From Shigella phage CT01, in sequence record OK018184: DNA of 64,000 bases. One strand, written 5' to 3'. Both the position numbers and the translations under genes were made by a program. Under the pieces are notes generated by a model that did not search any database, was not told the origin of the DNA, and was given only the letters and a program-made list of their open reading frames with translations. This document shows, one piece after another, positions 35,985-38,697 of the stretch. Numbering within the stretch: position 1 is the first letter of the stretch; every line of letters begins with the position of its first letter.

Positions 35985-36006
35985 AAAAAGCCCTATCATT
36001 TAGATA
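35985..36006 (-). terminator. hairpin terminator
   Basis: CCCTATC-TAAAT-GATAGGG stem-loop followed on the minus strand by CUUUUUGG. Confidence 0.5.
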
Positions 36007-36017
36007 GGGATTTAAAA

Positions 36018-36506
36018 TTATTTACCTAGTTTAGTTATTATAGCTTCGGCAGCAGCTTTTAGCTTAGATGCAGTGTTAATACGATTTTTAATTTCAGTAT
36101 AAGCATCGCCAAGAACATCAAGGCTATCAGAATAAACACTTACACTATTGCGTTCGCTATTTGAAATAGAACCTTTAGTTTTACGATCAAAATCGGTATA
36201 CACGTCTTGAAGATCACGGGCTGCCTTCTTTGCATCATCCAATGCATCAAGAGCTTTATTCAAAGCATTGACATATTTTTTAGTGTCAAACATATTCTTA
36301 GAAATTTTGAAAAATGCTTTATTGAAATTATTTTCTTGACTCATCGTAAAAGAACTATTATCGATGTTATACATTTCAATAGCTTTAGCTTTCCACTTAA
36401 GAAAATCGCCCCGGTCTTTTGGGTCCAAGTGGAAGAATACTTTAGTAAGATCTGCTTCAGATGGTAATTTTGCTGCTTCGGTTAAAAATTCGGCATAAGT
36501 TTTCAT
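36018..36506 (-). CDS. internal-protein-like protein with capsid-targeting leader
   Basis: 162 aa beginning MKTYAEFLTEA, the same leader type as ipII and ipIII (Leu at P3, Glu at P1); lysine/alanine-rich. Confidence 0.55.
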   Translation of the reverse strand: MKTYAEFLTEAAKLPSEADLTKVFFHLDPKDRGDFLKWKAKAIEMYNIDNSSFTMSQENNFNKAFFKISKNMFDTKKYVNALNKALDALDDAKKAARDLQDVYTDFDRKTKGSISNSERNSVSVYSDSLDVLGDAYTEIKNRINTASKLKAAAEAIITKLGK

Positions 36507-36589
36507 TTAAAATCCTTGAAATAATTTATTGGTTATTAATTATTTATCACGTTGTTATCATCCATGTTAGCATTCTCTGAGTGATTCAA

Positions 36590-36620
36590 ACTAAAAAGCC
36601 CCAACCTTTCGGTCGGGGCT
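36590..36620 (-). terminator. intrinsic terminator downstream of the tRNA/RNA region
   Basis: AGCCCC...GGGGCT stem-loop followed on the minus strand by UUUUUAG. Confidence 0.55.
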
Positions 36621-36625
36621 AAGCC

Positions 36626-36930
36626 TTGCGGCAACCTTGTCGGGGTTCCACCTGCTAAGGCAAGTGTTTGTACGAAACGCCGGGATTCGAACCCGGTTAT
36701 TAAGTAGTTGACGCTACTCAATATTTTTAAAAGGCCATATCTCGACCATATCCGAACGTTCCGTCAAAAACGCTACTCGGCTTACGGCAAAGATATTTCC
36801 TCGAATCGATAATTCGGTGCGCCGTTTCTGCTGTGATAGTAAAGAATCAGAACACAGTAAAACTGTGGGAGAAACTATACTCCAGGGAACATCAGTCCGA
36901 CGACTTACCGGTAGCGACCCGGTTTCTTAG
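36626..36930 (-). ncRNA. candidate stable RNA with a tRNA-like T-arm (species 1/2-like)
   Basis: No credible ORF; minus strand contains CCGGGTTCGAATCCCGG preceded by an AGTAG/CTACT stem and ends at the terminator. Confidence 0.3.
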
Positions 36931-37277
36931 TATTCTTTTAAAGCATCAACCTGTCCACGACGTTTACGCCATAAATCAATTACTTCATACGCAGATTCAG
37001 CATTTCGAATTGGACGGCATTTATATAAAGACTTGTGATTTTGATATTGTGTAGATAATGGAATTTTATCTAAAAGGTCTTTACGTTCAAAGTATTCGTA
37101 ACCATCTAAACCAAATGAACGATTTTTGAGAAATTGCCAATGACCGTATTCGTTTTCGACATAAACATAATCTGCATGCTGATAAAGTAAATTAATTACA
37201 CGTTCAGAAATAACAGTGTCATTGTGATTAAAATAGAATGTTAAATCATGAACTACTAAATAAACATTACCTTTCAT
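36927..37277 (-). CDS. hypothetical protein
   Basis: 116-aa ORF between tRNA-Arg and the RNA-like region. Confidence 0.4.
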   Translation of the reverse strand: MKGNVYLVVHDLTFYFNHNDTVISERVINLLYQHADYVYVENEYGHWQFLKNRSFGLDGYEYFERKDLLDKIPLSTQYQNHKSLYKCRPIRNAESAYEVIDLWRKRRGQVDALKEY

Positions 37278-37293: not shown

Positions 37294-37369
37294 TGGTCGA
37301 GGCAGTAGGGATCGAACCTACGACCTAGGACTTAGAAGGTCCTTGCTCTTCCTTCTGAGCTATGCCTCG
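37294..37369 (-). tRNA. tRNA-Arg (anticodon TCT)
   Basis: Hand-folded cloverleaf: acceptor CGAGGCA/TGCCTCG, anticodon loop CTTCTAA, T-loop TTCGATC, encoded CCA. Confidence 0.85.
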
Positions 37370-37373
37370 GATT

Positions 37374-37448
37374 TGGCGGACGTGATAGGATTCGAACCTA
37401 TAACCAATCGCTTAACAGGCGATCGCTCTGCCATTGAGCTACACATCC
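37374..37448 (-). tRNA. tRNA-Asn (anticodon GTT)
   Basis: Acceptor GGATGTG/CACGTCC, anticodon loop CTGTTAA, T-loop TTCGAAT, encoded CCA. Confidence 0.8.
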
Positions 37449-37452
37449 AAAT

Positions 37453-37539
37453 TGGTGGGGAGTGGTGGAGTCGAACCACCCGAGTCGCAATGACAATGGA
37501 TTTACAGTCCACACCGCTACCTCTACGGGATAACTCCCC
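37453..37539 (-). tRNA. tRNA-Tyr (anticodon GTA), class II
   Basis: Acceptor GGGGAGT/ACTCCCC, anticodon loop CTGTAAA, long variable arm, T-loop TTCGACT, encoded CCA. Confidence 0.8.
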
Positions 37540-37548
37540 AAATTAATT

Positions 37549-37623
37549 TGGTGGCCCTGGGTGGAATTGAACCACCATCTGGCGATTATGAGTCGCTTGC
37601 TTGAACCTTCCAGCTACAGGGCC
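37549..37623 (-). tRNA. tRNA with CAT anticodon (Ile if lysidine-modified, otherwise Met)
   Basis: Acceptor GGCCCTG/CAGGGCC, anticodon loop CTCATAA, encoded CCA; at the position of T4 tRNA-Ile. Confidence 0.75.
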
Positions 37624-37624
37624 T

Positions 37625-37700
37625 TGGTGCTGATTGACGGAATCGAACCGCCGACCTTCTCATTACAAGTGAGTTGCTCTACCTACTGAGCTAAATCAGC
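37625..37700 (-). tRNA. tRNA-Thr (anticodon TGT)
   Basis: Acceptor GCTGATT/AATCAGC, anticodon loop CTTGTAA, T-loop TTCGATT, encoded CCA. Confidence 0.85.
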
Positions 37701-37705
37701 AAAAC

Positions 37706-37795
37706 TGGCGGAGGCGATAGGATTTGAACCTATGAGTCGCCGGAGCGACTGCCGGTTTTCAAGACCGGTGCATTAAACCACTCTGCCACGCCTCC
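37706..37795 (-). tRNA. tRNA-Ser (anticodon TGA), class II
   Basis: Acceptor GGAGGCG/CGCCTCC, anticodon loop CTTGAAA, long variable arm, encoded CCA. Confidence 0.85.
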
Positions 37796-37797
37796 AG

Positions 37798-37871
37798 TCT
37801 CCATACAAGGATTTGAACCTTGGACCTCCTGATCCCAAATCAGGCGCTCTACCAAACTGAGCTACACGGAG
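37798..37871 (-). tRNA. tRNA-Pro (anticodon TGG), CCA not encoded
   Basis: Acceptor CTCCGTG/TATGGAG, anticodon loop TTTGGGA, T-loop TTCAAAT; abuts tRNA-Ser with a 2-nt spacer. Confidence 0.8.
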
Positions 37872-37881
37872 TAAATTAAAT

Positions 37882-37955
<74 letters not shown>

Positions 37956-37960
37956 AAATT

Positions 37961-38047
37961 TGGTGCGAGAAGTGGGACTCGAACCCACAAGGAAATCATT
38001 CCGCAGCATTTTAAGTGCTGTGCCTTTACCAATTTGACCATTCTCGC
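37961..38047 (-). tRNA. tRNA-Leu (anticodon TAA), class II
   Basis: Acceptor GCGAGAA/TTCTCGC, anticodon loop CTTAAAA, long variable arm, encoded CCA. Confidence 0.85.
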
Positions 38048-38048
38048 G

Positions 38049-38115
38049 CTGGGAATAAAGGACTCGAACCTTTGCATCCTGGAATCAAAATCCAGTGCCT
38101 TACCAATAACTCCCC
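38049..38115 (-). pseudogene. chimeric tRNA remnant: 3' 58 nt of tRNA-Gln joined to the first 10 nt of tRNA-Tyr
   Basis: Identical to the intact tRNA-Gln at 38625-38697 over its 3' part, but the 5' acceptor and D-arm are replaced by GGGGAGTTAT at the duplication junction. Confidence 0.7.
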
Positions 38116-38124
38116 AAATTAATT

Positions 38125-38199
38125 TGGTGGCCCTGGGTGGAATTGAACCACCATCTGGCGATTATGAGTCGCTTGCTTGAACCTTCCAGCTACAGGGCC
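38125..38199 (-). tRNA. tRNA with CAT anticodon, duplicate copy
   Basis: Identical to 37549-37623, shifted by 576 bp. Confidence 0.75.
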
Positions 38200-38200
38200 T

Positions 38201-38276
38201 TGGTGCTGATTGACGGAATCGAACCGCCGACCTTCTCATTACAAGTGAGTTGCTCTACCTACTGAGCTAAATCAGC
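38201..38276 (-). tRNA. tRNA-Thr (TGT), duplicate copy
   Basis: Identical to 37625-37700, shifted by 576 bp. Confidence 0.85.
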
Positions 38277-38281
38277 AAAAC

Positions 38282-38371
38282 TGGCGGAGGCGATAGGATT
38301 TGAACCTATGAGTCGCCGGAGCGACTGCCGGTTTTCAAGACCGGTGCATTAAACCACTCTGCCACGCCTCC
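38282..38371 (-). tRNA. tRNA-Ser (TGA), duplicate copy
   Basis: Identical to 37706-37795, shifted by 576 bp. Confidence 0.85.
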
Positions 38372-38373
38372 AG

Positions 38374-38447
38374 TCTCCATACAAGGATTTGAACCTTGGA
38401 CCTCCTGATCCCAAATCAGGCGCTCTACCAAACTGAGCTACACGGAG
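38374..38447 (-). tRNA. tRNA-Pro (TGG), duplicate copy
   Basis: Identical to 37798-37871, shifted by 576 bp. Confidence 0.8.
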
Positions 38448-38457
38448 TAAATTAAAT

Positions 38458-38531
<74 letters not shown>

Positions 38532-38536
38532 AAATT

Positions 38537-38623
38537 TGGTGCGAGAAGTGGGACTCGAACCCACAAGGAAATCATTCCGCAGCATTTTAAGTGCTGTGCC
38601 TTTACCAATTTGACCATTCTCGC
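38537..38623 (-). tRNA. tRNA-Leu (TAA), duplicate copy
   Basis: Identical to 37961-38047, shifted by 576 bp. Confidence 0.85.
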
Positions 38624-38624
38624 G

Positions 38625-38697
38625 CTGGGAATAAAGGACTCGAACCTTTGCATCCTGGAATCAAAATCCAGTGCCTTACCAACTTGGCTAATTCCCA
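38625..38697 (-). tRNA. tRNA-Gln (anticodon TTG), intact copy, CCA not encoded
   Basis: Acceptor TGGGAAT/ATTCCCA, anticodon loop TTTTGAT, T-loop TTCGAGT; abuts tRNA-Leu with a 1-nt spacer. Confidence 0.8.

Follow-up and report, generated by a model that had tools for sequence, protein, structure and literature searches.

In the 64,000-nucleotide stretch of Shigella phage CT01 DNA analysed here (the window), the minus strand runs through a tRNA cluster and a 116-aa ORF into about 340 nt that end at a strong terminator, and the question raised by this locus is what, if not protein, the stretch encodes. An initial annotation had noticed a T-arm-like sequence there, had found no full cloverleaf around it and had supposed a correspondence to the small stable RNAs of the T4 tRNA region. 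From the analyses described below we conclude with high confidence that the locus is the 3′ end of the tRNA operon of a T4/T2-like (Tequatrovirus) phage, consisting of a T2-type rnaD, rnaC, a trailer and a terminator, and that its expression includes tRNA-like processing.

Identity and layout of the locus

The description of the stretch as poor in ORFs was borne out by the ORF list and the terminator scan: between the 116-aa ORF and the terminator, only a 61-aa ORF with a TTG start and plus-strand ORFs of 34–73 aa can be drawn. A blastn search with 36560–36960 as the query against 50,697 phage records matched 809, nearly all from Tequatrovirus and its relatives, and 678 of these cover at least 80% of the query. 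The features annotated under the match in RB68, T4, X03016 and T2L (AJ880101) are the ncRNAs rnaD (“species II RNA”) and rnaC (“species 1 RNA”), and the supposed link to the T4 stable RNAs is correct in that the locus is homologous to the annotated rnaD and rnaC of T4, T2L and RB68. Alignment to the T4 species RNAs gave 138 identities over the 139 nt of rnaC (99.3%; KJ477684, X03016), and for rnaD identical ends around a different centre. The single substitution in rnaC is C for U at 36744, with otherwise nothing of substance to separate the two. In T4, too, rnaC closes the series of RNAs in the tRNA operon, with the terminator behind it, and its T arm is the same. Both rnaC and rnaD are thus already known genes, ordinary for a T4-like phage.

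The minus-strand order is tRNA cluster, 116-aa ORF, rnaD, rnaC and terminator (Table 1), which matches T2L, where tRNAs Met-Tyr-Asn-Arg are followed by the trna.2 ORF, rnaD and rnaC. The 116-aa ORF is T2L trna.2, and primer #24 of an earlier study (PMC2330249) matches its start; it is a member of phrog_3355, a group with no assigned function, and no Pfam domain was found in it. Its stop codon overlaps the annotated start of rnaD. In contrast, T4 lacks the trna.2 ORF, and its rnaD abuts tRNA-Arg, whereas rnaD in the window follows trna.2.

Table 1. Positions of the RNA genes, their parts and neighbouring features in the window.
Feature	Position	Strand	Basis or description
tRNA cluster	37294..38697	minus	16 ARAGORN calls
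trna.2 ORF, 116 aa	36927..37277	minus	between tRNA-Arg and rnaD
rnaD (species 2 RNA), T2-type allele, 116 nt	36815..36930	minus	RB68, T2L and X03016 annotations mapped via alignment and BLAST
AAUUA spacer between rnaD and rnaC, 5 nt	36810..36814	minus	putative RNase P leader of rnaC
rnaC (species 1 RNA), 139 nt per RB68 annotation	36671..36809	minus	T4 identity, annotations, covariance model
rnaC long arm, ~70 nt, in the place of the D arm	36732..36801	minus	helices 2–5; apical loop UUGACG, 36762–36767
rnaC anticodon-like arm, 9 bp	36698..36723	minus	6-nt loop CGUCAA, 36708–36713
rnaC T arm, 3′ acceptor strand and discriminator U	36672..36696	minus	T arm 36680–36696, acceptor strand 36673–36679, U 36672
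Conserved 3′ trailer	36621..36670	minus	hairpin CACUUGC-CUUA-GCAGGUG, then GGAACCCCGACAAGG, then a small hairpin
Intrinsic terminator of the tRNA operon	36592..36620	minus	AGCCCCGACC-GAAA-GGUUGGGGCU then UUUUU; terminator scan

Within the cluster, the tRNA block Leu-Gly-Pro-Ser-Thr-Met is present as a perfect 576-bp tandem duplication (37530–38682, minus strand), in which 38106–38682 is identical to 37530–38106. The duplication junction carries a chimeric 68-nt tRNA-like gene (38049–38116; 32.6 bits) that joins the first ~10 nt of tRNA-Tyr to tRNA-Gln. Because the two halves of this junction lie ~576 bp apart, unjoined, in the best 12 of 639 matching phage records, the duplication is either very recent or an assembly artefact.

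At the other end of the locus, trailer and terminator together occupy 36590–36670 on the minus strand. The terminator hairpin (36597–36620) has a 10-bp stem with seven G-C pairs followed by a run of T, is present in a single copy in the window and bears the label “pot. terminator” in X03016. Several relatives carry a second copy of the hairpin (L001 3400–3433, L009 3011–3044, L012 1105–1138, L019 1115–1148 and L023 1937–1970) after the next ORF downstream, a phrog_2280 member homologous to the window ORF at 36018–36506. In those relatives the phrog_2280 ORF has a terminator copy on either side, which gives it the look of an inserted cassette; after its homologue, the window has a different terminator (35991–36009) instead of a second hairpin copy.

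The trailer gave a fold z-score of −4.2, and the whole 346 nt (36590–36935) one of −5.1, against shuffled sequence. Dhakavirus IME08, Gaprivervirus VR26 and Yersinia phage P8 all keep the trailer, although one or both of the RNAs may be absent. IME08 (L006 1499–1700) has rnaD joined straight to the trailer, without rnaC, and in VR26 and P8 the trailer persists while most of both RNAs is missing. In VR26 (L008 879–1538), a T5orf172/MUG113 (GIY-YIG-like) nuclease ORF replaces rnaD, leaving only ACGGCGCACC and the trailer. This ORF reads through both, which raised the possibility that the trailer is a relic of a coding region; since the T5orf172/MUG113 family profile ends before the trailer, we regard the read-through as incidental and rejected that explanation. 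We likewise rejected a dedicated promoter for rnaC and rnaD: the promoter scan gave a sigma-70-like match (9/12) just upstream of rnaD, and a late-promoter-like TATAAATG (7/8) lies at 37025, but promoter-scan matches in the region are no more numerous than chance would give.

rnaC has a far wider distribution than rnaD. Searches started from divergent copies extended its range to Karamvirus, Moonvirus, Kanagawavirus, Gelderlandvirus, Carettavirus, Mosigvirus and Marfavirus. In these other genera it usually lies between two tRNA genes (e.g. tRNA-Trp, rnaC, tRNA-Gly) and is often unannotated or labelled as a tRNA or a small CDS; rnaD is found in Tequatrovirus, Mosigvirus, Dhakavirus, Carettavirus and close relatives (~734 records). 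The Marfavirus phages (L030–L033) keep rnaC beside a single tRNA-Met. Many GenBank records place “hypothetical protein” CDSs over rnaC and rnaD on either strand, and the 3′ 95 nt of rnaC are labelled “tRNA-Met” in Karamvirus PG7 and SonariX and “tRNA-Lys” in G4507. Neither RNA is represented by a family in Rfam 15, and Rfam searches of the window, T4 and four other genera at gathering and permissive thresholds returned nothing with E ≤1 over rnaC or rnaD. No similarity to either RNA was found in 5,426 E. coli genomes.

rnaC folds into a tRNA-shaped four-way junction

Analysis of 27 distinct rnaC sequences, from phages of at least eight genera, revealed a tRNA-shaped four-way junction that extends over the whole 139 nt and is supported by covariation. 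The RNAalifold consensus contains 39 pairs, and compensatory changes occur in 25 of these. In the structure described here, 98.5% of 1187 pair cells hold standard pairs, compared with 38–50% when the 3′ partners are slid by 1–3 columns, and 26 of the 44 pairs show compensatory changes on both sides. None of 500 shuffles reached any of the observed pairing measures, and rnaC (36671–36809) has a fold z-score of −4.6 against shuffled sequence. A covariance model built from the 27 homologues recovered rnaC, at 156.6 bits, as its sole hit in the window. Structural conservation across relatives, on which the suggestion of a stable RNA had been made to depend, is accordingly strongly positive for rnaC.

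The fold accommodates the elements that had first been noticed at this locus. The T-arm-like CCGGGTTCGAATCCCGG occurs once in the window, on the minus strand at 36680–36696, with none expected by chance, but it is not the isolated tRNA fragment that it had seemed to be; it is part of a complete tRNA-shaped fold spanning all of rnaC. This T arm (CCGGG UUCGAAU CCCGG) has a canonical 5-bp stem and abuts the 3′ acceptor strand directly. The acceptor stem comprises 7 bp (C2–G8 with C131–G137), with tandem U·U mismatches (U5·U134 and U6·U133) that are invariant in the alignment and a third pair (4:135) that changes from A-U to G-C between genera (11 versus 16 sequences). An AGTAG/CTACT stem reported next to the T arm was also found and is the arm at 36698–36723, which follows a conserved U/A-rich linker and has compensatory changes in eight of its nine pairs. 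The long arm is interrupted, and in its helices 3–5 such changes affect 15 of 16 pairs. One homologue, that of MY742 (L024), has a non-canonical, degenerate T loop (UGCAUGC).

The earlier view that no full cloverleaf is present holds for a canonical tRNA, since ARAGORN called no tRNA or tmRNA in 36590–36930 and the Rfam tRNA family (RF00005) gave no hit even at E values up to 10, but it does not hold for the 139-nt rnaC, whose four-way junction is cloverleaf-like. Features that rnaC shares with canonical tRNAs are the 7-bp acceptor stem, the 5-bp T stem, the T loop UUCGAAU, the discriminator base, (A/C)CA at the position of CCA and the location inside tRNA clusters. Unlike a canonical tRNA, it has a 70-nt arm instead of a D arm, an anticodon-like loop of 6 rather than 7 nt that is complementary to another loop, a 10-nt linker before the anticodon-like arm and the tandem U·U in its acceptor stem. 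We also considered the 3′ 93 nt of rnaC as a tRNA closed by an internal 8-bp acceptor stem (ACGGAACG/CGUUUCGU), which accounts for the “tRNA-Met” label in PG7 and for a weak Rfam hit to tRNA-Sec (17 bits against a threshold of 47). This arrangement was rejected, as two of its pairs are broken in 14 and 10 of the 27 sequences and none shows a compensatory change.

Among other RNAs, YrlA (Y-RNA-like) and the tRNA-like domain of tmRNA resemble rnaC in that they are stable, do not code for protein and imitate the acceptor/T-arm half of tRNA. However, no tmRNA, Y-RNA-like or other Rfam family matches rnaC or rnaD and ARAGORN finds no tmRNA, and rnaC differs further in that its own termini form the acceptor stem and that it lacks the G3·U70 alanine identity pair.

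The long arm is capped by an apical loop (UUGACG) that, in all 27 sequences, is a perfect complement of the loop in the anticodon-like arm (CGUCAA). The four Marfavirus sequences have UUGGCG and CGCCAA instead, both partners having changed so that A-U becomes G-C; elsewhere both loops are invariant, and the stems beneath them are extensively rewritten between genera. This pattern suggests that the loops could form a 6-bp kissing helix, which would hide the anticodon-like loop. Support for such a helix comes from the invariant complementarity and from the single compensatory change, probably one evolutionary event. The contact could be made within one rnaC molecule or between two, or each loop could instead bind something else independently. 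A repeated GAGTAGCGT element pointed out earlier is indeed present twice (36711–36719 and 36770–36778; 0.17 copies expected, with two copies in 1 of 100 shuffles), and its copies lie immediately 5′ of, and overlapping, the two complementary loops. As a defining element of the RNA it was rejected, as it is not conserved outside Tequatro-, Karam- and Moon-type sequences.

rnaD and the ends of the two RNAs

rnaD is 97.4% identical to the T2L allele, and, as in T4 and T2L, it lies directly upstream of rnaC with AAUUA between them. Over its 5′ 45 nt and 3′ 25 nt it does not differ from T4, and its central ~45 nt cannot be aligned with T4, so that rnaD lacks full-length homology to T4 species 2 RNA and is recognised by its ends and by its adjacency to rnaC; the T2L record itself describes the T2-type rnaD as “putative; predicted by 5′- and 3′-end homology”. 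Across phages, the centre (36836–36886) occurs as discrete, mutually unalignable alleles between invariant ends, with the T2 type in 147 phage records, the T4 type in 172, and further centres of RB68/L019 type and IME08 type.

The fold of rnaD consists of a 5′ hairpin (ACCGG-GUCGCUA-CCGGU) in which an A-U pair changes to G-C, an invariant closing helix and a long, variable central hairpin, the base of which co-varies and the upper part of which is made up of the discrete alleles. Because the 13 compared sequences are the same over most of rnaD, this fold is for the most part weakly tested. We infer that rnaD is a structured RNA in its own right, in which the ends are fixed and the central hairpin can be exchanged. 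Its 3′ end is an invariant ...ACGGCGCACCG except for the final bases, which are CACCG in the window and CACCA in T4. Other phages have CACCG, CACAG, CACCC or CACCU; the CCA-like end of T4 is therefore not conserved, and rnaD is not characterised by a 3′ end of tRNA type. The 5′ hairpin of rnaD (AACCGGGU-CGCUA-CCGG, 36906–36925) and the T arm of rnaC (AACCGGGUUCGAAUCCCGG, 36678–36700) have the 8-mer AACCGGGU in common and are similar in shape, which may be a trace of a common tRNA-like ancestor. In three lines of a T4-like phage evolved on E. coli ECOR34, a convergent SNP arose in rnaD (PMC12685909), which hints at a host-dependent role.

Previous studies of T4 described a single precursor of ~1.75 kb that contains eight tRNAs together with species I and II and ends after species I (PMC2330249). 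Both RNAs have been detected in T4 by northern blot and RNA-seq and were classed as late on account of a peak in abundance late in infection (PMC9697503); the probe sequence used there for the T4 northern blot begins TCGATTCGAGG.

Annotated boundaries of rnaC vary by 1–3 nt, from C2–U138 in X03016 (137 nt) through U1–A139 in RB68 (139 nt) to C2–A141 in T2L (140 nt). A gene of 137 nt with CCA added would be 140 nt, matching the length annotated in T2L, and mature rnaC is probably 36672–36808 plus CCA. In all genera a spacer of 4–6 nt, A/U-rich in most, separates rnaC from the preceding rnaD or the CCA end of the preceding tRNA. Position −1 is U in 21 of the 27 sequences, the 3′ flank is U-ACA-A in most genera and U-CCA-A in Marfavirus, and a CAA-type trailer follows rnaC in the other genera. 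Since the 12-bp stack of acceptor and T stems, the U at −1, the short leader and the 3′ flank all fit, we propose that rnaC matures like a tRNA without an encoded CCA.

On the basis of what is known of tRNA processing and of the T4 literature, rnaC and rnaD would be co-transcribed with the tRNAs and the trna.2 ORF. RNase P would recognise the acceptor/T-arm minihelix of rnaC and cut between U36809 and C36808, a cut that would at the same time free the 3′ end of rnaD. The 3′ trailer would then be trimmed back to the discriminator U36672 and CCA added. The most likely product of such excision by host tRNA-processing enzymes would be a non-decoding tRNA mimic. By analogy, MALAT1 mascRNA and the plant mitochondrial t-elements are comparable to rnaC as presumed here, in that a longer transcript ends in a tRNA-shaped module and the cut by which tRNA enzymes release this module also gives the upstream RNA its 3′ end. 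They differ from rnaC in being of unrelated sequence and from another domain of life, and in that rnaC has large conserved extra arms that would be superfluous for a mere processing signal.

Possible functions

We found no assigned function for rnaC or rnaD in the searchable literature, and the roles of RNAC and RNAD were stated to be unknown in 2010 (PMC3014915), in 2022 (PMC9697503) and in 2025 (PMC12685909). Of the functions considered, we rank a tRNA mimic first, followed by a cis role in processing or stabilisation, with base-pairing sRNAs less likely and a pseudogene or a coding gene close to excluded. Our leading proposal, itself a tentative one, is that rnaC is a stable RNA that mimics a tRNA without decoding and engages a protein, of host or phage, that binds tRNA, since it has a true acceptor/T-arm half and its anticodon loop would not be free.

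It is also possible, though doubtful, that rnaC, rnaD and the trailer are only cut signals and 3′ stabilisers for the tRNA-operon transcript and the mRNAs embedded in it (trna.2; segB in T4), having no role in trans and resembling in this respect the t-elements and mascRNA. rnaC is always found inside or at the end of tRNA clusters, with exactly the elements that RNase P needs; cleavage at its 5′ side would produce the 3′ end of rnaD; phages that have lost the RNAs still have the trailer and terminator; and the tRNA region has been described as non-essential, being dispensable in the laboratory (PMC2330249). However, the acceptor/T-arm minihelix alone suffices as a cutting signal, whereas the 70-nt arm, the anticodon-like arm, the 6-nt loops, the tandem U·U and an AAAAU linker are all conserved in at least eight genera, with compensatory changes in the helices. 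The accumulation of the excised RNAs as stable species in T4 (PMC9697503) also argues against a role in cis only.

A more specific form of the tRNA-mimic proposal, which we consider unlikely as it stands, is that rnaC acts as a tRNA decoy that, with its anticodon-like loop locked by the kissing helix within one molecule or between two, would titrate or redirect a tRNA-binding host factor, and that rnaD, with its invariant ends and cassette-like variable hairpin, is a host-specificity module. Candidate host factors for such a decoy would be defence nucleases or toxins that target tRNA, or enzymes of processing or modification. The convergent SNP that arose during host adaptation would fit such a role of rnaD (PMC12685909).

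Somewhat less probable still is that the two are base-pairing sRNAs, with mRNAs of phage or host as targets that would be bound through conserved single-stranded parts or through the variable rnaD hairpin. The variable rnaD centre, with its discrete alleles between invariant ends, is consistent with this function, as is the convergent SNP on ECOR34 (PMC12685909). On the other hand, no significant complementarity to either RNA was detected in the rest of the 64-kb window, where the best match is 14 nt, almost all A and T, and the E. coli genomes searched hold nothing similar. The variable part of rnaD is moreover predicted to be mostly base-paired, and no trans-acting sRNA has been characterised in T4 (PMC3014915).

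That the RNAs are decaying tRNA pseudogenes carried along in the cluster is very improbable. The T arm and acceptor stem do look tRNA-derived, some annotators have labelled parts of rnaC as “tRNA-Met” or “tRNA-Lys”, and the MY742 homologue has its degenerate T loop; decay is nevertheless contradicted by the covariation (98.5% of pair cells kept across genera, 26 compensatory pairs), by the invariant rnaC loops, by the retention of rnaC in phages with one tRNA only, such as Marfavirus, and by the lack of conservation of the internal 8-bp “acceptor” behind the tRNA labels. A small protein-coding gene, for which the window candidate would be the 61-aa TTG ORF (36536–36721), can be practically discounted: although ORFs can be drawn over the region and CDSs are annotated there in many records, these differ between phages in frame, strand and extent, no single frame is conserved across genera, the substitutions are compensatory pair changes rather than codon-like, and the window ORF has a TTG start and continues across the terminator.

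As rnaC and rnaD are to be expected in any T4/T2-like phage, the main value of their recognition here is correct annotation, given that mis-annotation is widespread in GenBank and neither RNA has an Rfam model. New by-products of the analysis are the cross-genus, covariation-supported fold of rnaC, the candidate kissing loops, the invariant tandem U·U pairs and the wider spread of rnaC compared with rnaD, and the features of the rnaC fold provide concrete mutational targets for probing the roles of these RNAs. If the decoy proposal were true, a pair of RNAs that has been orphaned for 50 years would prove to be a phage counter-defence system.
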